DNA from: a virus
Length of the DNA stretch: 64,000 nt
Reading direction: 5' to 3' (one strand)
Virus record (IMG/VR): IMGVR_UViG_3300010218_000006
Span: 1 to 64,000 of that record
Positions 2,770 to 59,276 of this stretch are shown piece after piece; positions within the stretch are counted from its first letter, which is position 1; every line of letters starts with the position of its first letter. The notes below the pieces were generated by a model. The model saw only the letters and a list, made by a program, of their open reading frames with translations. It made no database searches and was not told where the DNA came from. The position numbers and the translations under genes were made by a program.

Positions 2770-3153
2770 TTACTCTGCTTTTATAGTCCTGCTAGTGCTC
2801 TCAACTACTATAGACCTACCACTTGATGCTGTACGCAATAAGCGCCTCAGCGATGGCACATAATCCCCCGCTGTGGCAGTATACGTTAAGGAGAGCGACA
2901 TTCCGTCAGTATGGAAGGTTCTTGATGAACAGGTCAAATATCTATTATAAAAGAGTGAAACAGTGCTTGTTGATTGAGAAAAAGACCCTGTTGACACGTT
3001 CAATGAATAGACCCCAACTGGTGAGTAGCTAAGAGTTACAGGATTTCCTGAAAAAATGAAAGATGCTGCGGAGCAATTTAATACATATCCGGAAGAAGTG
3101 ATGTCACTACTAGAACCGATTGAAATACCCCCAACAGCGGACGATCCTATCAT
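2770..3153 (-). CDS. hypothetical Ser/Thr-rich protein
   Basis: Start moved to Met14, which has an AGAGG RBS and sits just after the upstream stop at 3156. 127 aa. Confidence 0.4.
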   Translation of the reverse strand: MIGSSAVGGISIGSSSDITSSGYVLNCSAASFIFSGNPVTLSYSPVGVYSLNVSTGSFSQSTSTVSLFYNRYLTCSSRTFHTDGMSLSLTYTATAGDYVPSLRRLLRTASSGRSIVVESTSRTIKAE

Positions 3154-3155
3154 AT

Positions 3156-3842
3156 CTACCTCTTTGGAAGATGTCGCAGTGCTGTGGCGCAATACTGCGC
3201 AATCAAGCCATAACCCCAGTTATTGAGGTGCGTTGAATCGTAAACATATGGCCTCATTGATAGGCGCATGAAGTTAGTACCGCTTGCAACAAAAACCCCG
3301 TGCGCACGAACGTCAACAACAGCATGTGCTCCCATCTCTCTATAATTTCTTTTTATATAGTTGTCGTAGTCTAGCAGGGTGTTGTTACCACTTACTAAAT
3401 CGCTTCCATAGACAGAACTGCCATCGACACTGTACCGGGGTAGTGTGGTCAGTAATATGACCTTTAATCCCGGCATGGCGGTAGTTCGTGCTGCAATATA
3501 ATCTGCACATTGCTGCCCTGTTTGAGTCCCGGTAACATCATTAAACCAAATTGTATTGGTTCCTTCCCAAATAAGCAGCACATGAGACTTCCCATCCTCG
3601 TATAACGCATCAACAGATGCCCCACGCGCAGTCATACTGTTGGTGTTGTTAAACGTACTTCCGCTGACTGCGAGGTTTGTCAATGTGGCCCCATTCATCG
3701 GGGGAAGTGCTTGTAGTTGCTGAGGCAGTGTACTTCCTGCAGTTGACCCTATGCCATAAACTAAGGAGTTACCTTCAAAAATCACTTTAGTTTTGGTAGT
3801 ATCATAAGGCATCTTAATACTACTGTCGGAGAATGGCCCCAT
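3156..3842 (-). CDS. SGNH/GDSL-family hydrolase (esterase/deacetylase)
   Basis: All four SGNH blocks are present: FEGNSLVYG (block I Ser), NLAVSGS (II), WEGTN (III), DSTHLN (V, DxxH). Confidence 0.75.
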   Translation of the reverse strand: MGPFSDSSIKMPYDTTKTKVIFEGNSLVYGIGSTAGSTLPQQLQALPPMNGATLTNLAVSGSTFNNTNSMTARGASVDALYEDGKSHVLLIWEGTNTIWFNDVTGTQTGQQCADYIAARTTAMPGLKVILLTTLPRYSVDGSSVYGSDLVSGNNTLLDYDNYIKRNYREMGAHAVVDVRAHGVFVASGTNFMRLSMRPYVYDSTHLNNWGYGLIAQYCATALRHLPKR

Positions 3843-5869
3843 TATACAAGCCCCACAGCATCTAGCAATGTGATCTTTGCATCAGAGCCGACAACCAAGT
3901 TAAAGTATTTATTAACTGCATTCACTGTAGGCCAATGTCCAATTTCCACGAAAGTAGTGGGGGATGCTACTGCGGCTACTTCAGCGTAAACGGCTGTACC
4001 AGAACGCCTAATACGGATGATATCACCTTCTGCTGGTGCTCTATTCGCTGTTACTGTGACAGGGCTTGCTGCCGCGCTTAACGAATAGCTCCCTGCTGTG
4101 ATTCCTAGATAGACCGCCATGTTACCGATTGGCTGATACGTCGGTCCGGTACTCTCCAAGCCGAACGCCATACCATTCCCGGAAACCTGCTCAAAGCGCA
4201 TGGACAGGGAACCGTCAACGCCAGACGCCCCCAAGGTCATGTTTGCACAAGCTTCTTGGTTAGTGAATGTACCTGCATTCGTACCTGTATAAGTGTATGG
4301 ACCTGTACCTGTCTCGGTGAGGCCAGTCTTAGATACAAATCTCGGGTAAGAACTTGCTATTGGCGTGACACTATTTGAAGCTGGCGACGGTGTAGATGTA
4401 CCTATTGCATTGGTTGCGGTTGCTGTAAACGTATAAGCCGACCCATTTGTCAAACCAGAGACAGTAATCGGACTTGTTGTTCCCGTTCCAGTAAAGCCCC
4501 CCGGAGATGAAGTTATTGTGTATCCTGTAATAGCACTACCTCCGTTTGAAGGTGCGGTGAACGCCACACTTGCTGAAGAATCTCCAGCAGTAGCTGTTGG
4601 TGCTGACATTTGAGCTGGAGCCGATGCTGCTGCAAATACATTGTTTGTTACACTTACGGGTCCAAAGGATGCTACTGCGTTTCCTGCGGGGTCTGCCAAC
4701 TTACTTGTTCCGGGTTGTGTATAACTTACAGTAATTGTGTCGCCTTGCGCGTAGGCCGAATTAGCGGTAACTGAAACTATACTTCCGCTAATAGAGACAG
4801 AGCTTGCAGTTTTTCCACCACTTAAAGTAAACGAAGATGCCGCAGGTAAGGTTGCGCCCAGTGCCTCGCTCATCGTAATTTGGACGACAGTTGGGCTGGT
4901 ATTTGCAACCTGAGCACTGACAAATGTTGGAGGCGTTGAATCAACAGCTTGTACATTATCGGTGATTGCTAGAGTAAATCCAGCCATCTCATTGCCAGAC
5001 GGGTCTTTAAGATTGTTTGTCCCATCCGGGGTGTACGTAACGTTGACGGCCTCCCCGTTTACAAAAGCTGTTGAGGTAACAAGTCTGACGGTATTTGTGC
5101 TAATAGTGGTGCTACTTATCGGGTGACCCGGTATAGTGAATGTACTGCTTGGTGGATTAGTTGTTGCATCCAATGTTTCAGACATTGTGACGATAATAAG
5201 CGTAGGCGTTGCGTTCTCTACAGTCGCAGTGGAGGCCGTCGGAGCCACTACGTCGATAGCCACAGCATTCACTGCCTGCGTTATAAAATACCACGTATCG
5301 TAACCATCATTAAAAAACTGGACGATGTTAACAATTCCGTTTCGGTTGTCATAACCAGACGAGCCGCCGTATTCTGTCATGCCTGTAAAGGTTGGGGTAT
5401 GCACTCCGTCTGCTACGAGCCTTACATAAACAGAGGCACCTTTTATTGGGCTTGCAGCTACAGTAAATGACAGCACAGAGCTTACAACCTGCTGCGGCAT
5501 GTAGCGATTTCCGTTGGCAGTAAGCGGTACTGTAGAAGAAAAACTAATATCATCTACTGTAAAAAACTTCGCAATCTGGCATGAAGGCAGCGTTACAAAC
5601 ACGCTTTTTTGCCCAGCAGGGAAAGTCACTGCCAAGCCTGCATTGGAGCTGCTTAATACACTTTGTCTGGACAGTGTAACAGAGTCTGTAAGCGTGTATG
5701 TCCCAATTTCCCAGTTTCCAGCAACATCTGCGACACAAACCGGAATGCTTGAAGTACCAGTTGATAGCGAAGATGCGAATGCCCTTGCGCCTGTAACTGC
5801 ACCAAAGAGCGTTATAGTTGTTGTATTTGTTACACTGCTTGTTTCTTCAACACGGTCTGCATAAATCAT
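3842..5869 (-). CDS. fibre-like protein with tandem Ig-like repeats, an FN3 domain and a C-terminal beta-sandwich
   Basis: 675 aa. It has two repeats of about 95 aa (ATPTLIIVTMSE.../TSPTVVQITMSE...), an FN3-like segment (APTATAGDSSASVAFTAPSNGGSAITGYTI...) and a fibre-type N-terminus. Confidence 0.6.
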   Translation of the reverse strand: MIYADRVEETSSVTNTTTITLFGAVTGARAFASSLSTGTSSIPVCVADVAGNWEIGTYTLTDSVTLSRQSVLSSSNAGLAVTFPAGQKSVFVTLPSCQIAKFFTVDDISFSSTVPLTANGNRYMPQQVVSSVLSFTVAASPIKGASVYVRLVADGVHTPTFTGMTEYGGSSGYDNRNGIVNIVQFFNDGYDTWYFITQAVNAVAIDVVAPTASTATVENATPTLIIVTMSETLDATTNPPSSTFTIPGHPISSTTISTNTVRLVTSTAFVNGEAVNVTYTPDGTNNLKDPSGNEMAGFTLAITDNVQAVDSTPPTFVSAQVANTSPTVVQITMSEALGATLPAASSFTLSGGKTASSVSISGSIVSVTANSAYAQGDTITVSYTQPGTSKLADPAGNAVASFGPVSVTNNVFAAASAPAQMSAPTATAGDSSASVAFTAPSNGGSAITGYTITSSPGGFTGTGTTSPITVSGLTNGSAYTFTATATNAIGTSTPSPASNSVTPIASSYPRFVSKTGLTETGTGPYTYTGTNAGTFTNQEACANMTLGASGVDGSLSMRFEQVSGNGMAFGLESTGPTYQPIGNMAVYLGITAGSYSLSAAASPVTVTANRAPAEGDIIRIRRSGTAVYAEVAAVASPTTFVEIGHWPTVNAVNKYFNLVVGSDAKITLLDAVGLV

Positions 5870-8280: not shown

Positions 8281-9303
8281 CTACGACTTAGTGAGTTCGA
8301 TAACTAGCTCAGGGCGCATCAAGGCATTCACGAAATTGGACTCGGTTTCGATTTCAATTTTCTCGCCCTTCGGATCGGCGTACTCAAACATATACACCTG
8401 TTCACCGATAGTGTTTGCCAAATCAAACTTGTTAGCGGGGGAGAAGTAGGTGCGAAACACATCGCTACCTTGCGGCAGCATGTAAGCCTTGTCAGCAGTG
8501 ATAAGCTGAGTTCCGTTATACGCATCCCGCATTTCTACGAAACGGACTCCGCTGAAATAAAATTCGCGGTGTCTGACCGTAGCACTACCATTAGCGGATA
8601 GGCGTTGACGCAAAGGTTCTTGTGTAGACGTATAATATTGAAAGGCCGTCTTTACTGTGGCGTGGCTAATCAGTGCAGCAAACCAAGTGGGGGAGCACAA
8701 AGCAACTACGCCAGCCATCTGAGTAGACGAGCCTGCGTTATCTTGGATATAGGCGATAGCCTTTTCTACTTGACCAAGAACGTCTGTGGTAGCTGTCGAA
8801 AATGCGAAGTCAACGGTAGAACGCGATTTACCGAACTCAGTGAACCAATTCTGGCTGACAGTTCCGCTAGGTGCATACACAGTTCCTGCGGTGATGGCTT
8901 GTGCGCGAGCGGCTTCAAGAGTCCAAGCATGGTTCATACGGATACGCTCCATCTTCCGCATACGCACTGCATCGAGTGTGTCGGCGGCGGCAGGGTTGCC
9001 ATAGGCGCGCTTACCTTGCAAGTCTTGTGGAGTGATATAGTCAACATCCGGGAAGTGGGGAACTGCGAAAGTGTGCAGTTTACGCACATAATCTTTACCT
9101 ACATTTCCACGCTCACCGCGAACACGGTCAACAATCAGGGCACCCCCTTTAATAATTTCCTCGAACACAACTGTATGTTCCGCAACACCTTCTTCTTGGA
9201 AAATTCCAAGTTGACCAATGGTTCCCCACGAGTTTGGCACTACAGAAATTTCCTCGGTCCAATCCGCTACTTCAAAGCCATTGGCAAACGATCTGATAAT
9301 CAA
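8281..9303 (-). CDS. major capsid protein (lambda gpE-like family)
   Basis: 340 aa. It follows the protease, scaffold and decoration genes, and its N-terminal region resembles capsid-E family proteins. Confidence 0.7.
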   Translation of the reverse strand: MIIRSFANGFEVADWTEEISVVPNSWGTIGQLGIFQEEGVAEHTVVFEEIIKGGALIVDRVRGERGNVGKDYVRKLHTFAVPHFPDVDYITPQDLQGKRAYGNPAAADTLDAVRMRKMERIRMNHAWTLEAARAQAITAGTVYAPSGTVSQNWFTEFGKSRSTVDFAFSTATTDVLGQVEKAIAYIQDNAGSSTQMAGVVALCSPTWFAALISHATVKTAFQYYTSTQEPLRQRLSANGSATVRHREFYFSGVRFVEMRDAYNGTQLITADKAYMLPQGSDVFRTYFSPANKFDLANTIGEQVYMFEYADPKGEKIEIETESNFVNALMRPELVIELTKS

Positions 9304-9318
9304 AATATACCTCTTATA

Positions 9319-9963
9319 TTAAATTTGTTTAAATTTTGAAACCCACTCTAGCCAATTGCTATCGTTTACCGGATTCCAGTTTTGTTTCTTTATCTTTTTG
9401 CAAATAGCAAAAGACGAGTAAAGCGTGTCTAACTTAAAGTGCTTTGACACCTTCGTGTATCCTTGCTTCGGATTTTCTGTTAAGTATTTATGGATTAAGT
9501 CTGCTATACGCCAAACATTGCTATTTGAAGCTGGGTGTAGCCACTCTGGACCATTGACTTTAGGCGCGATTAAATGCTTACTATTTTCTTTCCTAGTTTC
9601 GTAGCTCACGCTCCTAGACCCATCTAGCATTTTTAATCTGGCGGCTTCAGAATGTTTCCTTCCGAGCATTGGAGGAGACTCACCGCCTATGTTAATATTC
9701 CACCCAATATTTGGAGCTGGCCTTAGAATATTTTCTATTTGCCTGCAGTAATCGGAGTCGGCTACAAGTAATGTGTCAACTTGCAACTTTTCTCCGTACT
9801 TGTTTATTGCATGACTTATTGGATAGTTTTTACCTGCCCTTGCATTGTGCCTGTGCTCCCTGAACCTTTTCTTAATACCTCCTACGGTTATACCCACATA
9901 ACCCTGAGAAAATACGTCATTATGTTCAGGAAGCCTAATCCAGTACACTATGCACTTTACCAA
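9319..9963 (-). CDS. GIY-YIG homing endonuclease-like protein
   Basis: VYWIRL...GYVGIT...RFREHRHNA (GIY-YIG core) plus a NUMOD3-like GRKHSEAARLKM. It is wedged between the decoration and capsid genes. Confidence 0.7.
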   Translation of the reverse strand: MVKCIVYWIRLPEHNDVFSQGYVGITVGGIKKRFREHRHNARAGKNYPISHAINKYGEKLQVDTLLVADSDYCRQIENILRPAPNIGWNINIGGESPPMLGRKHSEAARLKMLDGSRSVSYETRKENSKHLIAPKVNGPEWLHPASNSNVWRIADLIHKYLTENPKQGYTKVSKHFKLDTLYSSFAICKKIKKQNWNPVNDSNWLEWVSKFKQI

Positions 9964-13434: not shown

Positions 13435-15882
13435 CTATATTGACACGATAGGTGATGCTTGGGACATGTCTGGTAGGGAGAATGTTGGGATGGTGATTTG
13501 ACGAGCTAATGTAGAAAATGCGTCAGAAGTCGCATCCACCTGATCGTCCTTTTGAGTACGCAATCCACTAAACTCCTCAAGTTCATTGAAGAATGCCTCG
13601 TTCCAATCCCCTCTTACAATCCTCACAGAGCCGCTTTCCGCTAATGCAGAGAATGGCTTAAATCTTGTCACTTTACCACTATGCCCTGAAATGCTACATG
13701 TTCTTGCAGGAACACCGTGCTCTGCTAATACTCTCAGGTAGAAGGCATTAGCTGTCTTTCCTGCTGCTCCGGGGTCCATAGGAATTGTGACATGACACTC
13801 CTCAATGCCGTCTGCAAGTGCAACGTCCACCACAGTTTTAAGAACCTTGTCAGTTCTTGCTCTGAACCTTACAACATCTTCTATATAGTAGATGCCATAC
13901 TTATCCCGACTCATCTTGACACCAACCGTCCAGTCGGGGTTGGGCAAAGCTGCGCTTACCTCACTGCCTGCAAAGTCCCAAGACCTTACACGAGAGATCG
14001 GGTTGTCAGGAGGAAAATCCACGACAGGTGTCCATTCCCTTTTGAAATAACCCGCACCAGATTCTTTGGCTGTCCAACTCCCATGCAGGTATTTAAGCTG
14101 GTTAACTTTAGGCTGCGCCAACAAGTTTGCCAAGTACGATGTATTTCTTGGAGGCAACAAATACGGATTGTCGAATACTCCAGTAGGAATAAAACGAAAG
14201 GATTTGGGCATGCAAAGACGTAGACGTTCTTCTTTAGTGAAGTTCATCATCTCTTGCTCAGTCATTCCGTGAGCATAAATCATGTTGCGTGGCTTACCGT
14301 ATAACTCAAACACTTCCTCAGGAGAGTTCCCCCAATGTGCCTTGTTATCAATAACGATAAACCATCTAATTCTGTGCTCAGTGCCCTCTACAGGGACTCC
14401 CGTCTCGGGGTCTAGGCAGAACTCAACCCAGTTTTTCAGAAAAGAATTGATGTCTGGATTCGCAGTCAGGATCAGTTGAGGATGAATCTTTGAGTGTGCG
14501 GATCGGATACGAGAGAGTAAAAATAGGATTTGATGTTCTGTCCATTTGTCTGCAGCTTCGTCTACGAGGGCGCGAACTAGCTGTGATCCTTGCCAAGAGC
14601 CTAGGTCGTCGTCGCAGGCAATTGCGGAGAAGCTAATAACAGCCCCAGATTTAAAATCCCACTTGAGAGCCTGTGACTTGAACTCCCCGCCAAAATCTGT
14701 ATATACCTGCTTGCTCTCATCCACTAAACCGCCTTGGCGAGTGAGTTCTGGCCGAGTTCTACGGAAGATAGTACAGCGAAAATTAGGGTCGTGGATGCCG
14801 TCTAAGTTTTTAGTAAGGCACGTAAAACTGTTGTGGGTTACAATAAAATCTGTTGTTACAAACAGTTTCTCGCTACCAGATATGGAAATGCAGGTAGCAA
14901 AGTCTTTTCCAACGGGATGTATGTCGCTAATCCTGTTACCAACACCTTTTGGACGGCAACGGGAAACTTTCCTACTCAAGCGAAACAACCTTGCAGAGTC
15001 TTCTCCGCGTATATAGAGCTTATATACCTTGCTGCAAAATACCCTTTCTCCGTCTTTTTTATAACTTCCGATTTTTGTTGTCTGTGTTACTGTGTAACCT
15101 AAGCTCCTGAGAAGATAAGTGACTCCCATAGCTAGTTCTTCAGATGTTGTATCAAAAAAGGTCTTACCGGCAGAAGACACATACCCGTCTGTGTCCATTA
15201 AACCTTGGACGATACTGAACCTGTCTTCTACAGAAGCTTCAAGATATTGCTTTGGAATAAACTTAGTTTGGGATAGACTCCCATTCAGGCCCAACTCTCT
15301 TAGTTGCGGTGAAATTCCTATTACGGTCCTACTTATGGCCTTGTTTGCTGCTCGATTTTTTATTTGAGGCTTACCCAACTGGTAGCCTGCAGTTTCTATT
15401 GACCTGAATATATCGTCATCCATAGATGTCATCTGGCAGCTTCCGTTTACAGAGATATATCCATCTCCAAGAGCGCAGCCCAGCACATACGGATCGATTG
15501 GTAGGTAACTTTTTTTGCCAAATTCAACCGGCTTTACTACTGGTGTAATAGGTAGGTTTTTCCTTTTCCCTGACTTTTTGGCATTCTCTCTACGTACTTT
15601 ACTAAGCAGTTCTAAAGTAGTTTTTACTTTAGTGGCTGACTTTCCTCTACCGGCTTCGTGGTATTGCCACAAGTGCTCTCCGCAGCAGTCTATGGTTCTA
15701 CCATCTTGGAACGTGACTCTATAAATGTCAACGATTCCTTGAGGCCATACGTTCTCAACTTTTTCAACATTGTTGGAGGGAGTTACAACTAAGTCTCCGA
15801 CCTTAATATCCTCAATGTTAATGAATCCGCTAGGAGTTAATACTTTTTCACCATGCCGTAGCGCCTTACCACCCCCGGCTCC
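13435..15882 (-). CDS. terL: terminase large subunit, exon 2 (contains intein)
   Basis: After intein removal the sequence reads GAGGGK|SFT (Walker A), LVDEAAD (Walker B) and LTANPD, followed by a nuclease domain. The ATG called at 15885 is intron sequence. Confidence 0.85.
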   Translation of the reverse strand, partial: GAGGGKALRHGEKVLTPSGFINIEDIKVGDLVVTPSNNVEKVENVWPQGIVDIYRVTFQDGRTIDCCGEHLWQYHEAGRGKSATKVKTTLELLSKVRRENAKKSGKRKNLPITPVVKPVEFGKKSYLPIDPYVLGCALGDGYISVNGSCQMTSMDDDIFRSIETAGYQLGKPQIKNRAANKAISRTVIGISPQLRELGLNGSLSQTKFIPKQYLEASVEDRFSIVQGLMDTDGYVSSAGKTFFDTTSEELAMGVTYLLRSLGYTVTQTTKIGSYKKDGERVFCSKVYKLYIRGEDSARLFRLSRKVSRCRPKGVGNRISDIHPVGKDFATCISISGSEKLFVTTDFIVTHNSFTCLTKNLDGIHDPNFRCTIFRRTRPELTRQGGLVDESKQVYTDFGGEFKSQALKWDFKSGAVISFSAIACDDDLGSWQGSQLVRALVDEAADKWTEHQILFLLSRIRSAHSKIHPQLILTANPDINSFLKNWVEFCLDPETGVPVEGTEHRIRWFIVIDNKAHWGNSPEEVFELYGKPRNMIYAHGMTEQEMMNFTKEERLRLCMPKSFRFIPTGVFDNPYLLPPRNTSYLANLLAQPKVNQLKYLHGSWTAKESGAGYFKREWTPVVDFPPDNPISRVRSWDFAGSEVSAALPNPDWTVGVKMSRDKYGIYYIEDVVRFRARTDKVLKTVVDVALADGIEECHVTIPMDPGAAGKTANAFYLRVLAEHGVPARTCSISGHSGKVTRFKPFSALAESGSVRIVRGDWNEAFFNELEEFSGLRTQKDDQVDATSDAFSTLARQITIPTFSLPDMSQASPIVSI
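14830..15864 (-). mobile_element. intein (345 aa) with LAGLIDADG homing endonuclease, class 3 signature
   Basis: It starts ALRHGEKVLTPSG after Walker A Lys and ends VTHN|S. Two LAGLIDADG motifs are present (LGCALGDGYI, IVQGLMDTDGYV), as is the Trp(B12)-Cys(F4)-Thr(G5) triad. Confidence 0.85.
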
Positions 15883-16139
15883 CATTATTTTCGAGTAATC
15901 TCGCTACAATTACTCCGCTTTCGCTGCTGCAATTTAGTTTTTATATTTGCAGATAAGACTATATCTTCGCTTCTTGTTTAAGAAGGACTCCCGTTTCCAC
16001 TCGCTTGAGTGTACGGCTCGCGCCTAGTCGTTGAACGTTATTCTCAGGATTGAGAATCTTCGCTGCTGGTTATCTTTCTCAAGACTTTCCAGCAATTAGA
16101 GAGTTGTTTTTTACCCTTGGAGGCAGATTAGTGTTGTTT
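15883..16139 (-). mobile_element. group I intron (ORF-less, IA-like) in terminase large subunit gene
   Basis: The P, Q, R and S core elements, the P1 guide pairing with U.G at the 5' splice site, and a terminal G are all present. Splicing restores an in-frame P-loop. Confidence 0.85.
16041..16056. repeat. TTCTCA-N4-TGAGAA motif copy (forms intron P6)
   Basis: TTCTCAGGATTGAGAA on the plus strand. This is the same duplex 16-mer as at 16496 and 30780, in inverted orientation. Confidence 0.9.
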
Positions 16140-16223
16140 ACCACCAAGCAGGATGACATCTGTTGTGTTATCCGTTAAAAATAGCCGCTGTTTTTCCGAC
16201 GCGGGACCGTAAATCTTACTCAT
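16140..16223 (-). CDS. terL: terminase large subunit, exon 1 (28 codons)
   Basis: AAGGAG RBS followed by the ATG at 16223. The exon encodes MSKIYGPASEKQRLFLTDNTTDVILLGG and ends in the T that pairs with the intron guide G. Confidence 0.8.
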
Positions 16224-16354
16224 AAGCAACTTTCTCCTTGTTTCAAAATAACCTCCTCATAGGTTTGTTAATGATTTTAAAGGAGCACAATCAGGATTAC
16301 TGAGGAGGTTGTCTTGGAGGAGACTCCCGATCATGCTGCTTTAAAACCACTTCA

Positions 16355-16392
16355 AACAAAAAGCCCCGCTCAGACTTAATCCAAACGGGGCT
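16355..16392 (-). terminator. terminator-like hairpin with T-tract
   Basis: The minus strand reads AGCCCCG-N17-CGGGGCT followed by TTTTGTTT. Confidence 0.5.
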
Positions 16393-16495
16393 GTCTGCAA
16401 GGACGTACCTTGCAGGAAATGACGAAATTCTTGCATAGGCGGCACGCTCCCTTCCCCTATGACCCGCCAAAGCATTCTCTTTGGCCTCTCCACTA

Positions 16496-16511
16496 TTCTC
16501 AATCCTGAGAA
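16496..16511. repeat. TTCTCA-N4-TGAGAA motif copy
   Basis: TTCTCAATCCTGAGAA, 3 nt downstream of the stop of 16515..16865. Confidence 0.9.
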
Positions 16512-16514
16512 ATC

Positions 16515-16865
16515 TTAATCCAACGTCCTAACCGTAGTAAAATCAACTATCGGCCTTTTAGACCCTTCGTCAGACTCTACAAGCCTCCCATTACTGCCGC
16601 CCTTAACAAGCTTCAACTCTGCCACCATACGCTGAATCTTATCCGCATTAATCTTCTCTGTAACATCAATATGAAAGTCTAGCAGCTTCGTAGCAGCCGT
16701 CAGACGAATCTTCTCATCCTCGCTGTGCATACACTTAAGCAACACATCTACAGCCTCTATGGACGCCTTATCCAACGCCTTGAGCAGCTTTTTCAGCTTA
16801 ATCTCATCTTGCGTAAAACTGATGTCATCCTTGATTACAAGTAGTTGAGAGCTATTATTGCTCAT
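16515..16865 (-). CDS. terminase small subunit candidate
   Basis: 116-aa helical ORF, the first gene after the late promoter and immediately upstream of terL. Assigned by position only. Confidence 0.35.
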   Translation of the reverse strand: MSNNSSQLLVIKDDISFTQDEIKLKKLLKALDKASIEAVDVLLKCMHSEDEKIRLTAATKLLDFHIDVTEKINADKIQRMVAELKLVKGGSNGRLVESDEGSKRPIVDFTTVRTLD

Positions 16866-21358: not shown

Positions 21359-22006
21359 TTATGCGGCTTTATTTCCTTTATATTGCTTCTTACGAGCCTC
21401 AAACTCTTCCTCGTAGGCTTCCATGCTATCTTTCCATTTGGAAATATTCCTTGCGATGCTGTTACGTGGCACTTTGTATTTCTTTGCCAGATCATCTAGC
21501 GTAGCTCCGTCCTCTTTCTCTTGGCAAAGCTTGCGCAGAAGCGTAGGGTGAATCTTGAGAGGCTGTCCTAGTTTTGTTCCTTGTGCTTTTGTACGAGCTA
21601 GGCCGGATTTTGTTCGAGTAACAATATTGTCCCTTTCCATCTCAGCCATGCAAGCAAAGATGTGCGTAATCATCTTCCCCGCTGGCCCTGTCAAGTCTGC
21701 CCCAAGCTGCATCACTTCCAAGCTAACACCCATAGCCTTGAAAGCCTCTACAGTGGAGAGGATATCGATAGCATTGCGGCCAAGACGGTCTAGCATTGTC
21801 ACAATAACACTGTCCCCTTGCTGCAACACAGCCATCATTTGCTTGAAGGCAGGGCGCTCAAGAGCCTTAATGGTGCCTGAGACTCCATCATCAGCGTAGA
21901 AATTCCCATCAGCTACAGCATAGCCCTTGTCACGGATTTGCTTCTTTTGGTTCTCTGTGGTTTGTCCTTTATCTGTGGACACGCGTAGGTAGGCGAAGAT
22001 GGTCAT
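21359..22006 (-). CDS. small serine recombinase (resolvase/invertase family)
   Basis: FAYLRVSTDKGQTTENQ (catalytic Ser), VTMLDRLGRN, and a C-terminal HTH LDDLAKKYKVPRNSIARN. 215 aa. Confidence 0.85.
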   Translation of the reverse strand: MTIFAYLRVSTDKGQTTENQKKQIRDKGYAVADGNFYADDGVSGTIKALERPAFKQMMAVLQQGDSVIVTMLDRLGRNAIDILSTVEAFKAMGVSLEVMQLGADLTGPAGKMITHIFACMAEMERDNIVTRTKSGLARTKAQGTKLGQPLKIHPTLLRKLCQEKEDGATLDDLAKKYKVPRNSIARNISKWKDSMEAYEEEFEARKKQYKGNKAA

Positions 22007-22036: not shown

Positions 22037-22065
22037 ATTATAGATAGTTATCCCATTAATGTCAA
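22037..22065 (-). promoter_or_regulatory. consensus promoter TTGACA-N17-TATAAT for recombinase
   Basis: The minus strand reads TTGACATTAATGGGATAACTATCTATAAT. Confidence 0.7.
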
Positions 22066-22623: not shown

Positions 22624-22838
22624 GCATTAAAGTAGGAGAGGAGCTTGGAAGCAAACTTGTAAAGCTTTTAGGCTTACCAGAATATACAGTATCATTTACG
22701 CTTCGCTGTGCTGTAAATGAAATTGTAACAGTGACTTGCGAATATTACCCTGAAGGTCATCTGGAAGATGCTGGTCAGGAAGACTATGAGACTGTGTTTG
22801 CAGAATATCGGTTGGAGAGGATCGAGAGTGAACTGTGA
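22620..22838 (+). CDS. hypothetical protein
   Basis: 72-aa ORF with an AAGGAGACAAAATG RBS. Confidence 0.55.
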   Translation: MSIKVGEELGSKLVKLLGLPEYTVSFTLRCAVNEIVTVTCEYYPEGHLEDAGQEDYETVFAEYRLERIESEL

Positions 22839-23579
22839 TTTGATGCTAGGAGATTGTCTGGAGAGAATGGATGAGATTGGAGACTGCAGTGTAGATGCAA
22901 TCATAGCTGACCTCCCTTACGGTACAACACAGTGTAAATGGGATAGTGTGATTGACTTAGTTACTTTATGGAAACAATTTAAAAGAGTTTCCAAACCTAC
23001 AACTCCTATTGTCTTATTCGCCCAAACCCCTTTTGACAAAGTATTGGGATGCTCCAATCTTGTATGGCTTAAGTACGAGTGGGTATGGGAGAAGACTAAC
23101 GCTACAGGTCATCTCAATGCTAAGAAAGCCCCAATGAAGGCTCACGAGAATATTCTTGTATTCTATGACAAGCCTCCGACATACAATCCTCAGAAGACTT
23201 CGGGCACACTAGGAAAGTGAGTAAGGCAGAGCATCGTGTAAATTCAATGGACAGCGATTGCTATAATAAAGGATTCGTCAGAAATACTTATGATAGCGAT
23301 GAGCGTTACCCTAGAAGCGTTCAAGTTTTTAAGAGTGATACACAAAAACAGGCTTTACATCCTACACAGAAACCTTTATCTTTGTTGGAATATCTTGTCA
23401 AAACATACACTAATCAAGGTAACACTGTGCTGGATTGCACAATGGGGTCAGGCACAATAGGAGTGGCATGTGTCAACCTTGGAAGAAATTTTATCGGTAT
23501 TGAGAAAGATGAGAATTATTATCAAATAGCTTTTGAGCGGATTGCTAATGCACAAGGGAATTTGAAAGAATCTGTGTAG
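22828..23579 (+). pseudogene. beta-class N6A/N4C DNA methyltransferase split by a -1 frameshift at GGAAAG_TGA
   Basis: The N-terminal part carries IIADLPYGT (DPPY-type motif IV). The C-terminal part carries RYPRSV, HPTQKP and DCTMGSGT (motif I). The frames switch at 23214-23220. Confidence 0.7.
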
Positions 23580-23660
23580 TTATTGTCCAATCATTAGGTC
23601 TGTCCAATAATAATGGACGAACAAGACTACTGGACAATATTTCTTAAAAGCAACACATAT

Positions 23661-23699
23661 ATGGCTTGTCTCTTCATTGAGGCAGGCCATTTTTATTTT
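23661..23699 (+). terminator. rho-independent terminator
   Basis: 12-bp stem ATGGCTTGTCTC/GAGGCAGGCCAT (2 G.U pairs) followed by TTTTTATTTT. Confidence 0.75.
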
Positions 23700-24760
23700 A
23701 AAAATTTTTTGAAGCACACCCTTCTCTGGCAATTTCAATATTGCTGTCTGGAAATATATCTAGACTACTTTAGAAGTCTTTAGAGGCTTTATATTTGTAG
23801 CTGCACCATCACTATTCCATCCCTTTTCTAATCGCTTGTAGGGGCTGTAAAGGCTTCCTATTGGCATTCTATTCTCTATTGTTCACTTTCGAGTTCAATT
23901 GTAGACGGCTTTTGAGGAAATGTCAAGTTTTCTGTTTTGGATTCAGTATTGCCTGTGGTGCTTAACCGGCCTTGGTAGGGTCTAAACAGGCTCTGATCCG
24001 CTGTAAAATATCGTTTTAAGACCGTTTCCAGCCCATCCAATACCTCCCTAGCCTCCATCCTAAACGATCGTTTCTAGCGCCTCTAATCGATTCATACAGT
24101 AGTTTTCGTTTCCCTGCTTGTCCCATTAACGGTCGATAGCGGTATGCCTCCTCGATAGGAGACGTTTAAAGCGATCTGTAGGGGAGATGTATAGCTGATT
24201 GATTTGATGCTGATAGCAGGCTGATTAGCTGCCTTGCCGTGCATGTTGAGTGCTGTCCGCTGGAGCTGGATAGCGTTATGCGTTGACTTGCTGCATTGAT
24301 TTAGTTATTGCTTGTATGCAATTGTTAAATCTTGATATCAGGAATGTCACATATTGGTACTGGAGCGTACCAAGATTGCTGAGTAGCATCAACTAGCATC
24401 ATATTTTAACAAACAGACTAGATTAATAGTTACTCGCAATAGACCTGCCACCACCTTACAAGCCATTGCAAAGCACAATAAGACTAACTTTAAGTCCCTT
24501 GCATAATGCAAGTATGTTACAAACAACATTGATTGCCGCTCATATAGTTATACGTAATAACTCTATGCAGTAGTATAACTATAAAGCATATAACCTACAG
24601 GTTAATTACGACTAGCATTGGATAACCACCCTATACAGCATTCTTAATAGCCAATTGCAAGCCCGTACAGGCCCCATAAGGCCGTCAATAAGCCTGCCCT
24701 ATACCACCCTACATACTCGCACAGAAACGCATTAGAAAGCCTGTAATCAAGCCACAATAG
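23700..24760. other. 1.06-kb ORF-poor, repeat- and palindrome-dense region bounded by convergent terminators
   Basis: The only ORF is a 60-aa one without an RBS. Several perfect palindromes and a recurring CCCTAYAC/CCYTACAG-type motif are present. Confidence 0.6.
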
Positions 24761-24783
24761 AAAAAGCCCGGACTATGCCGGGC
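24761..24783 (-). terminator. rho-independent terminator
   Basis: The minus strand reads GCCCGG-CATAGT-CCGGGC followed by TTTTTCTATT. Confidence 0.7.
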
Positions 24784-24804
24784 CTATGCTGGAGGGTGTG
24801 AGAC

Positions 24805-25041
24805 TTACTTGCCGAGGAACTTTTTAACCTCTTCTTTGAGTCTTTCGGCTTGACGCTTTTTGTTATGTTGCACCACGTATGCTTTTCCTGCTTGAATCCA
24901 TTTACCATCTTTAAGGTATTCGTTGCGGATAATGTTACCTGCGGACTCTACTACCCGCACTTTAGTGCCGTCGCTATATTCTACCTCGTAAGCCATTTCG
25001 CCCTTCATGCTGTAGATTTGTGCGTTTTTGATGGTAATCAT
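24805..25041 (-). CDS. hypothetical protein
   Basis: 78-aa ORF with a GGAGATAACAAATG RBS and its own terminator. Confidence 0.55.
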   Translation of the reverse strand: MITIKNAQIYSMKGEMAYEVEYSDGTKVRVVESAGNIIRNEYLKDGKWIQAGKAYVVQHNKKRQAERLKEEVKKFLGK

Positions 25042-25266
25042 TTGTTATCTCCGTTGGGTTGTTTGCTGCAGTGATGTAATCATCTCATGAATTTCTAACC
25101 TATGTCTACAATTATTTGAAATTATTTTCGTTGTATTTTCACCACAACATATAATTGCCCCAAAGCAACATGCCCGCATGCTTATAAGTTGCTATGCACT
25201 GCCTTCCCACAAAATGTCGCTGTCGCTCTAGGCTTCGCCTTTGCACAATCTCCCATATTCATGGTA

Positions 25267-25295
25267 TTGACAGATTGCAACATATGGTATATAAT
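25267..25295 (+). promoter_or_regulatory. consensus promoter TTGACA-N17-TATAAT
   Basis: TTGACAGATTGCAACATATGGTATATAAT. Confidence 0.7.
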
Positions 25296-25348
25296 AGACT
25301 CTTTATAAGTATATTCTACACACACACACTATAAAGGATGTTGAACGA

Positions 25349-25924
25349 ATGGCAGTAGATAAGCAAAAAGCAATCGATCTACGATTAGCAGGCAAAACAC
25401 ACAAAGAGATTGCACAAACAATAGGTTGCTCTGTTGCATGGTGCAAAGCCAACCTAAAAGGAATGAAGGCACCAAACAATGATGCCCCAGTAGTAGGGGA
25501 GATTGTAAGGCGGGGACTCTCTCAAACAGGAATAACTAACGGGGAGATATACCAGTTAGCAAAACAACATTACAGCCTTTCGCACAAACAACTAGACCTT
25601 AAAGTTGGACAACTAAAAAGACTTGCACTAAAGCAAAACAAAGATGTAGTAATCAGGCCGTACTGGTTAGTACCGTCATTACCTCAAGATAGTGTAAACA
25701 CAATGATGGACTCAGCTCAAGCAATCTATGAACGTATAAACCTTGCTTCGCTTGAATTTAGGGATAAGTATTGCTTAGATGAAACACACCATAAAAGCGT
25801 GTTTTATTCTATGTGTGCTTTAGCTAGTGGTGAGAGTAGCCCGTTGATGCCTCAAGGAATCTTGAGTTATGGAGATTACCTAACTTCCATCATTGATAGG
25901 CTAGAGGATCGGAAAAATAAGTAG
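25349..25924 (+). CDS. HTH DNA-binding protein (regulator or replication-associated)
   Basis: The N-terminal AIDLRLAGKTHKEIAQTIGCS resembles a sigma region 4 / LuxR-type HTH. Confidence 0.45.
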   Translation: MAVDKQKAIDLRLAGKTHKEIAQTIGCSVAWCKANLKGMKAPNNDAPVVGEIVRRGLSQTGITNGEIYQLAKQHYSLSHKQLDLKVGQLKRLALKQNKDVVIRPYWLVPSLPQDSVNTMMDSAQAIYERINLASLEFRDKYCLDETHHKSVFYSMCALASGESSPLMPQGILSYGDYLTSIIDRLEDRKNK

Positions 25925-58966: not shown

Positions 58967-59145
58967 TGACATTTCTAATTCTGCTGGCTACATTTCTTGG
59001 CTTAATGTTTTGGTCAAAGAAACTGAGTGATAAAGACAACTACTCATGCTACCTCACTGCATCTGCGGGAGGACTTGTTGCAATCGCGCTAATTTGTGAC
59101 GGAATCTACGAGATTTATAAGCATGTCAGTGTGGCATTTAGTTGA
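58966..59145 (+). CDS. membrane protein (59 aa)
   Basis: Start at Met15. Two hydrophobic helices. Confidence 0.4.
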   Translation: MTFLILLATFLGLMFWSKKLSDKDNYSCYLTASAGGLVAIALICDGIYEIYKHVSVAFS

Positions 59146-59170
59146 CATGAGGAATTAGTTAGTATATAAT
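59142..59170 (+). promoter_or_regulatory. consensus promoter TTGACA-N17-TATAAT immediately upstream of tRNA
   Basis: TTGACATGAGGAATTAGTTAGTATATAAT. The -10 element ends 11 nt before tRNA position 1. Confidence 0.7.
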
Positions 59171-59181
59171 GACGTTTCACT

Positions 59182-59256
59182 CTCTCGTTAGCTCAGCGGA
59201 ATTAGAGCAACGGGTTTCTACTCCGTAGGTCGTAAGTTCGAATCTTACACGAGAGG
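59182..59256 (+). tRNA. tRNA-Arg (anticodon UCU); CCA encoded at 59257-59259
   Basis: Hand-folded cloverleaf: acceptor CTCTCGT/ACGAGAG, D stem GCTC/GAGC, anticodon stem ACGGG/TCCGT with loop TTTCTAC, and T arm GTAAG-TTCGAAT-CTTAC. Confidence 0.9.
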
Positions 59257-59276
59257 CCAAATTTTAAAGGGGCTAA

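Follow-up and report, generated by a model that had tools for sequence, protein, structure and literature searches.

A partly conserved non-coding island near a small serine recombinase gene of an uncultivated tailed phage: a candidate cis-acting control region

What does a phage keep in more than a kilobase of DNA that holds no gene? The question is raised by a locus in the IMG/VR virus record IMGVR_UViG_3300010218_000006, of which we analyzed positions 1 to 64,000 (the window), a part of the 82,048-bp JGI metagenome contig Ga0136213_1000025 of an uncultivated tailed phage. A preliminary description, made from the letters alone, had called a region without open reading frames (ORFs) the largest non-coding stretch of this DNA, closed by terminators pointing inward, and had proposed for it an origin, a packaging site, a genome terminus or a non-coding RNA locus. 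Size and borders are confirmed: within 23580-24804 (1,225 bp, the island) no frame has an ORF of at least 65 amino acids, over a length that no other part of the window reaches, the runner-up having 629 bp, and a terminator scan gives 23661-23690 on the plus strand (12-bp stem, T-run) and 24785-24764 on the minus strand. We read the island neither as a gene for a protein or a structured RNA nor as a genome end; it behaves like a functional non-coding locus which is partly conserved in related uncultivated phages. The reading that we favor, with a probability of roughly one in three, is that of a composite cis-acting DNA control region, in which a recombinase-linked or replication/maintenance site would stand next to an array of sites for a DNA-binding regulator.

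The DNA of the island and of the 24 kb around it has no match among 50,697 phage records, and tblastn with the two helix-turn-helix (HTH) proteins encoded next to the island found none in the same records. IMG/VR scans with the neighboring proteins gave no relatives, those with three DNA patterns gave chance matches or none, and scans of GTDB genomes with two DNA patterns gave no relatives either. The best isolate match of the terminase protein TerL (13435-15885, minus strand) is the Acinetobacter phage TaPaz, with 34% identity. Two related islands were reached via homologs of the neighboring 191-amino acid HTH protein: L003, an 85-kb contig (54% identity in this protein) in which recombinase, methylase, gap and HTH gene follow each other as in the window, and L004, a contig of 2.2 kb (79% identity). 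L126 is the informative one of three loci from a metagenome scan with the alignment of the HTH protein, while L151, L155 and L162 were reached via homologs of the serine recombinase described below; HTH homologs more distant than those of L003 and L004 have no island preceding the gene. The core comparison covers these six islands and that of the window, seven in all.

TAA, TAG and TGA are each present in all six frames of the island, so every frame stays closed even if one of the three is read as sense. Six-frame translations gave no match to PHROGs and no remnant of a known phage protein family, tblastx of the window against L004 gave similar scores across all six frames, and substitutions between the two islands are spread evenly over the three phases (e.g. 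12/11/10), without a 3-nt periodicity and with indels that are not multiples of three. A recoded gene across the island, which the preliminary description had considered as the finding that would speak against it, was not found, and frameshifted or decayed genes were rejected on the same grounds of stops, missing codon bias and missing PHROG matches. Two short ORFs were also discarded: the one of 60 amino acids (23876-24058) lacks a start codon in L004 and meets an in-frame stop in L003, and one of 35 amino acids, embedded in the predicted transcript below the leftward promoter, shows only non-synonymous differences from L004, with mismatches of 7/13/9 over the codon positions.

A structured RNA fares no better. 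The covariance-model scan which the preliminary description had suggested gave no match to Rfam 15 at the gathering score in the island; at E values up to 10, sub-threshold eukaryotic or unrelated matches alone appeared, on the terminator, and the same was true for the L003 and L004 islands. Sliding folds of the left part had z-scores of about 0 on both strands, folding of the whole island gave z = -0.6 and -1.5, and RNAalifold on six aligned cores predicted 0 pairs on the plus strand and -0.12 kcal/mol on the minus strand. With no Rfam match, fold stability equal to that of shuffled sequences and no conserved pairs, the structured RNA locus proposed earlier, or a member of a known RNA family, is rejected.

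Conservation is found at the level of DNA. The left part of the island (23640-24145) is 74-85% identical to L004, whereas the adjacent HTH gene reaches 61.5% at its third codon positions, a difference which points to purifying selection on the DNA itself, without a coding signature. The alignment with related phages proposed at the outset succeeded for this part, while the right part could not be aligned; a functional non-coding locus, in the general terms in which it had been claimed, is upheld by the selected left half and by a single-copy core shared across the family. Within the left part, identity to L004 rises to 87-89% over 23640-23760, although the genes upstream differ, and this block includes a 22-bp tract of A and T only (23689-23710), following the terminator hairpin, which is 100% conserved in L004. 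The motif GGCTGTAAA-N3-TTCCTATT (23843..23862, plus strand) is also identical there. Further to the right, the block CGCCTCTAATCG (24078..24089, plus strand) lies about 115 bp right of the TTAAC of the core and keeps this spacing in L003 (9101), L151 and, as CGCCTCTAAT, in L126; CGCCTCTAAT(CG) about 115 bp right of the core is common to several islands. Several of them also share a GAAATAT(A)TC motif and have one to three A/T-only tracts left of the core.

The core itself, TTAAC-N39-AAATAT (23962..24011, plus strand), occurs in a single copy in the 64-kb window and is shared by seven stretches poor in genes on metagenomic contigs of this group of phages. Both its ends and the N39 spacing are invariant in the window, L004, L003, L151, L155 and L126, the spacing being N37 in L162, and this invariance holds although the neighboring proteins of the relatives are only 30-60% identical. 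Its center is semi-conserved as GGGTC(G/T)AAAC, often GGGTCGAAAC. In five of six islands the strand composition switches at the core, from G+T-rich on the left to C-rich and G-poor on the right. Unrelated viral loci, about 1 Mb in total, gave no match to a profile built from the cores, and a general class of promoters was rejected as an explanation since the core occurs once in the window. Being short, invariant, asymmetric, present in a single copy, fixed in its spacing and without RNA structure, the core is best read as a putative protein-binding DNA site. A similar string, TTTAAC-N41-AAATATCC together with a CCCTACAAAG motif, was noticed in a gap of the TaPaz genome (L150, positions 2356-2919 of the record, 565 bp) and discarded: the seven-core profile does not score it, no homolog of the recombinase or of the HTH protein was found near it, and in DNA so rich in A and T the likeness may be accidental.

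The preliminary description did not mention the gene which gives the core its most telling context. At 21359..22006 on the minus strand, 1.6 kb left of the island, a small serine recombinase of the resolvase/invertase type is encoded (215 amino acids; Pfam Resolvase E=1e-36, PHROG 'DNA invertase' E=2e-49), and a perfect sigma-70 promoter (22065..22037) drives it. The protein is as close to the gamma-delta/Tn3 resolvase as to Gin, homologs of 45-62% identity are found on many contigs of 82-90 kb, and as a neighbor of the island the gene is conserved across the phage family. Wherever an orthologous recombinase is in view, which is so in five islands (the window, L003, L151, L155 and L162), the gene has the core on its 5' side, reading away from it, and gene-free gaps of 1.0-1.7 kb are present on this side of the gene in L151, L162 and L155, where the gap abuts the gene. 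The distance from the core to the recombinase start is 1.96 kb in the window, with an operon in between, 2.1 kb in L003, 3.0 kb in L151 and 2.3 kb in L162, all three with intervening genes, and 0.34 kb in L155, with no intervening gene; in L126 the core is 0.23 kb upstream of a serine recombinase that is 32% identical. This linkage between recombinase and island is, as far as the compared sequences go, the strongest comparative signal that we obtained. As a separate observation, a perfect palindrome, TGTCC-N9-GGACA (21963-21981), falls in codons 1-15 of the recombinase gene in the window and could be an autoregulatory site or due to chance.

To the left of the core the island carries a promoter. 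A promoter scan places a sigma-70 element, TTGACA-17-TACAAT with 11 of 12 matches, at 23926->23898 on the minus strand, and L004 (827..799) keeps both hexamers despite changes at 5 of the 17 spacer positions. The window holds 13 sites fitting TTGACA-17-TATAAT at 11 or more of 12 positions (2430, 13373, 16928, 16978, 22065, 23926, 25267, 36395, 36483, 41884, 47640, 56299 and 59142), compared with about 0.85 expected by chance, and the spacer is 17 bp in every one. Each of the other 12 is followed after 25-45 nt by a ribosome-binding site with its start codon or else stands directly before a tRNA-Arg gene. It would seem that each of the 13 opens a transcription unit of the phage, which relies on host-type promoters. 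Several of them share an extended AACTTGACATTT -35 region; that of tRNA-Arg(TCT) (59182-59259) is a perfect TTGACA-17-TATAAT which ends 12 nt upstream of the gene (element 59142-59259). Transcription from the leftward promoter of the island would yield a non-coding transcript of about 240 nt (23650..23891, minus strand), the start of which is placed from the promoter position and the end at the hairpin 23661..23690, a terminator that it would have in common with the converging methylase operon. The predicted RNA is A-rich and unstructured (fold z = +0.8; -0.55 in L004), the sequence downstream of the promoter is 79-85% conserved relative to L004 without a coding signature, and the minus-strand U-tract past the hairpin is weak. 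A short unstructured transcript from a conserved sigma-70 promoter is plausible.

The right part (24150..24763, plus strand) is of another kind. It cannot be aligned with L004 or L003 except for a patch of 44 nt, and its top strand changes at about 24370 from G+T-rich to A+C-rich, an alternating pattern that returns in L004 and L003. Much of what had been listed for the island is present as described, yet at chance level. The four palindromes are at the positions given, and one alone, the 11-bp inverted repeat 24543-24583, exceeds chance, being equalled in 3 of 200 shuffles; for the island as a whole, perfect inverted repeats with arms of at least 6 bp number 6 against 5.3 expected, and with arms of at least 7 bp, 3 against 1.4. 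The GCTGAT repeats are confirmed as three copies (24194, 24209 and 24220). The CCCTAYA-like motif is present at the sites listed, and gains support only with the related islands pooled: CCCTAC/GTAGGG then occurs 8 times over three islands against 1.1 in shuffles, a count that none of 1000 shuffles reached, with copies oriented to the minus strand on the left and to the plus strand on the right in all three. Some of the pooled copies are orthologous and therefore not independent.

Oriented short repeats form a second pattern. [GC]CACAA occurs five times on the plus strand and never on the minus strand of the window island (0.82 in shuffles), and four exact copies, again on the plus strand only, are found in L126 (0.64 in shuffles). 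In L126 they lie, together with what reads as about eight direct repeats of the GCACAAACAA type, in a 1-kb gap of its own which precedes the HTH homolog, and L003 has CACACAACA six times at 9390-9790, upstream of the HTH gene, where 60 shuffles reached at most 5 copies. Repeats of the CACAA type are restricted to three of the four islands with an HTH gene, and none occur in L151, L155 and L162, where no HTH homolog is in view. The simplest reading is that the repeats of the right module are candidate binding sites of the 191-amino acid HTH protein. In L126 the left module (130-1295) lies by the recombinase and the repeat-rich one apart from it (2877-3940), by the HTH homolog, which indicates that the two halves of the island are separable.

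On its right side the island is followed by a gene of 78 amino acids (24805-25041, minus strand; PHROG 18800, function unknown) which, with its own terminator 24785-24764, makes up the element 24764..25041. It is absent from the L003 and L004 islands, and its insertion splits an ancestral non-coding region that continues at 25042..25348 (plus strand) with further CACAA-type motifs and a perfect sigma-70 promoter for the HTH gene (25267-25295). That gene (25349..25924, plus strand) encodes the all-helical protein of 191 amino acids with an N-terminal HTH, the homologs of which have 30-79% identity; its AlphaFold2 model has a predicted local distance difference test score (pLDDT) of 89, and a Foldseek search with it against PDB gave no significant match. 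The second neighboring DNA-binding protein, of 143 amino acids, had been likened to a replication initiator with a winged helix-turn-helix (wHTH). Weak matches alone stand behind this likeness (PHROG E=1e-5, Pfam below the cut-off), and the protein has no homolog among 5.8 billion proteins, none in the relatives of the phage and no relative in PDB.

Put together, the favored reading of a composite control region would work as follows. The core would be a protein-binding site that acts with the recombinase as a resolution or cyclization site, in a role like that of res or loxP, or alternatively a replication or maintenance site that is kept beside the recombinase system. The leftward promoter would, in this lineage, produce the unstructured RNA of about 240 nt, which may be regulatory or may serve to open the adjacent A/T tract, and the variable right half would be a lineage-specific array of oriented short repeats bound by the downstream HTH protein. 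A narrower form, in which the core is an asymmetric target of the conserved small serine recombinase, unlike known res and hix sites, and the pair is a counterpart of P1 Cre-loxP that cyclizes or resolves the genome, we consider doubtful.

Several observations weigh against a recombinase-linked control region. The core is asymmetric, and in its 220-bp surroundings no inverted repeat recurs among the seven islands when perfect 6-bp arms are required, a setting which imperfect sites could escape. The L156 group has a recombinase of 54% identity, and within 6 kb of it neither a core nor a comparable gap, while in L126 the invariant core stands beside a recombinase of only 32% identity; the same core next to so divergent an enzyme is contrary to recognition specific to the recombinase and fits better with a host factor or another conserved protein. 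The weightiest points against a res-like site are these two, the lack of a recurrent dyad symmetry at the core and its unchanged sequence beside 32%-identical recombinases. As for the other parts, the leftward promoter is absent in L003, since about 60 nt are missing there, the best repeated 8-10-mers of the window island are not above dinucleotide shuffles, and L004 has the HTH gene and lacks the CACAA array. Finally, the comparative base amounts to only seven islands.

How do the other explanations compare? A replication origin, where leftward transcription or a protein bound to the core or to the repeats would open the A/T tract for the phage primase-helicase and polymerase, is a tentative possibility. 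The phage does encode its own replisome, with a T7-type primase-helicase, a PolA-type DNA polymerase, ligases and an exonuclease, and the strong promoter lies about 190 bp upstream of the A/T-only tract that is unchanged in L004; similar tracts with G-rich flanks are found in the L003, L151, L162, L155 and L126 islands, and the compositional switch at the core would suit an origin as well. L003 even has two perfect DnaA boxes (TTATCCACA) at 9127-9164, which form a 10-bp inverted repeat and are the sole ones in 20.6 kb, besides its six direct repeats of CACACAACA. However, there is no perfect DnaA box across the 64-kb window and no iteron array above shuffles in the window or L004, so that an iteron-type origin is not supported for this DNA, and the promoter is the very element that L003 lacks. 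The weak initiator-like wHTH gene nearby would suit an origin, but it has no homolog in any relative and the gene at its position in L003 is unrelated, which leaves no conserved cognate initiator. The main product of the locus could also be a small regulatory RNA (sRNA), in which case the transcript of about 240 nt would work as a protein sponge or through base pairing, with its regulatory region in the remainder of the island. Its promoter, one of the 13 near-consensus sites that each head a transcription unit and of which one drives a tRNA gene, has its hexamers kept in L004 and is followed by conserved sequence without a coding signature, and related virulent myoviruses express abundant intergenic sRNAs (PMC4933390). 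We nevertheless regard an sRNA as unlikely: the transcript has no stable or conserved fold and would end at a hairpin with a weak U-tract, the family-wide core lies upstream of the promoter and outside the transcript, and L003, without the promoter, keeps the downstream motif as GGCTGTAAA-N6-TTCCTATT as well as the core, so these do not depend on the RNA and family-wide conservation is not explained by it.

Less likely again is a locus where accessory genes are often inserted and most of the DNA is neutral or in decay, with only terminator and promoters being functional, and this could apply to the right half only. That half is unalignable between relatives, most palindromes and repeats of the window are at chance level, and each lineage has its own accessory genes inserted in and around the island (the 78-amino acid gene here; methylases, an HNH gene, PcfJ and a recombinase elsewhere). 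On the other hand, the left half is clearly more conserved than neighboring third codon positions, the core is invariant where the neighboring proteins have diverged, and no remnant of a known phage protein family was found. A packaging site or a physical end of the genome (cos, pac or the boundary of a terminal repeat) is highly improbable. A single-copy conserved non-coding site with a switch in strand composition would be compatible with it, but the terminus or packaging site that had been suggested met with no positive evidence: the terminase genes (13435-16865) are 7-8 kb away, no long related contig that was checked ends at the island, and the window contains no terminal-repeat signature.

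An invertible switch of the Hin/Gin/Cin type was rejected, since the search for inverted repeats that flank a segment gave no conserved pair, and every relative has the alignable blocks in the same order and orientation. The one inverted element is a cluster of four TGTCCA-type half-sites between the methylase stop and the terminator (23583..23636), two direct and then two inverted, 17 bp apart. It has a dyad architecture and is the sole such cluster in 64 kb; the same architecture is found in L004 (597-650), on the opposite side of the terminator and inverted, and is absent from L003. Such a placement would suit a small operator-like element that is mobile or positioned separately. Its half-sites may resemble the gamma-delta res half-site. 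The neighboring N6/N4 DNA methylase is divided over two overlapping ORFs (22768-23220 and 23217-23579; 150 and 120 amino acids), where L003 has a single gene of 359 amino acids; the split could reflect a frameshift, a pseudogene or a two-part enzyme. Away from the island, the 629-bp ORF-free stretch 15886-16514 upstream of TerL contains a match to the Rfam group I intron (15939-16149, minus strand; 61 bits, E=5e-13). The alignment of the TerL ORF with TaPaz TerL begins at about residue 27 of the TaPaz protein, and a short first exon may precede the intron; the JGI record also gives intein-type Pfam matches (Hom_end, LAGLIDADG_3) in the terminase.

At present the island stands as a well-delimited conserved non-coding module and not as a demonstrated new mechanism. 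If the core is a recombination, maintenance or origin site, it would define a cis element for a large family of uncultivated phages, which is represented by many metagenome contigs of 82-90 kb. This family looks virulent because its members encode their own replisome, and such a site would explain why a small serine recombinase is kept by apparently lytic phages that have one. A compact pair of site and recombinase with an unusual asymmetric site could also serve as a genetic tool.

By the features tested, the island is outside the Rfam families, iteron origins, res and hix sites and invertible switches, and its likeness to known systems is one of parts. sRNA1 and sRNA2 of PAK_P3, a virulent Pseudomonas myovirus, are about 100 nt long and were found by RNA-seq (PMC4933390). 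They resemble the predicted leftward transcript of the island in being short, non-coding, intergenic and driven by a promoter, and TerL proteins of PAK_P3-type phages are among the nearest relatives of the TerL of this phage; they differ in having no sequence similarity to the island, the family core of which is outside the predicted transcript. P1 loxP-Cre can be compared by role only, as Cre is a tyrosine recombinase and the phage enzyme a serine recombinase. Transcription-activated origins, such as the T7 primary origin and T4 oriF/oriG, are known to have a strong promoter followed by an A/T-only tract, and this order is found in the island. With lambda ori and P1 oriR it shares genes of DNA-binding proteins nearby and, in L003, DnaA boxes and direct repeats upstream, whereas the window has no significant iteron array, DnaA box or conserved initiator gene. 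The res/resolvase units (Tn3-type, gamma-delta res-tnpR, Sin-resH and beta-six) differ from the island in that its core has no recurrent dyad-symmetric subsites and stays constant beside recombinases that are only 32% identical, and in that an operon and a distance of 2 kb separate site and gene in the window. They likewise place a single-copy non-coding site 5' of the gene of a small serine recombinase, the distance to the start codon is 0.2-0.35 kb in the compact relatives L155 and L126, and the recombinase of the window has its own strong promoter as well. Judged by analogy of layout, it is such a recombinase gene with its upstream site that the island most resembles.

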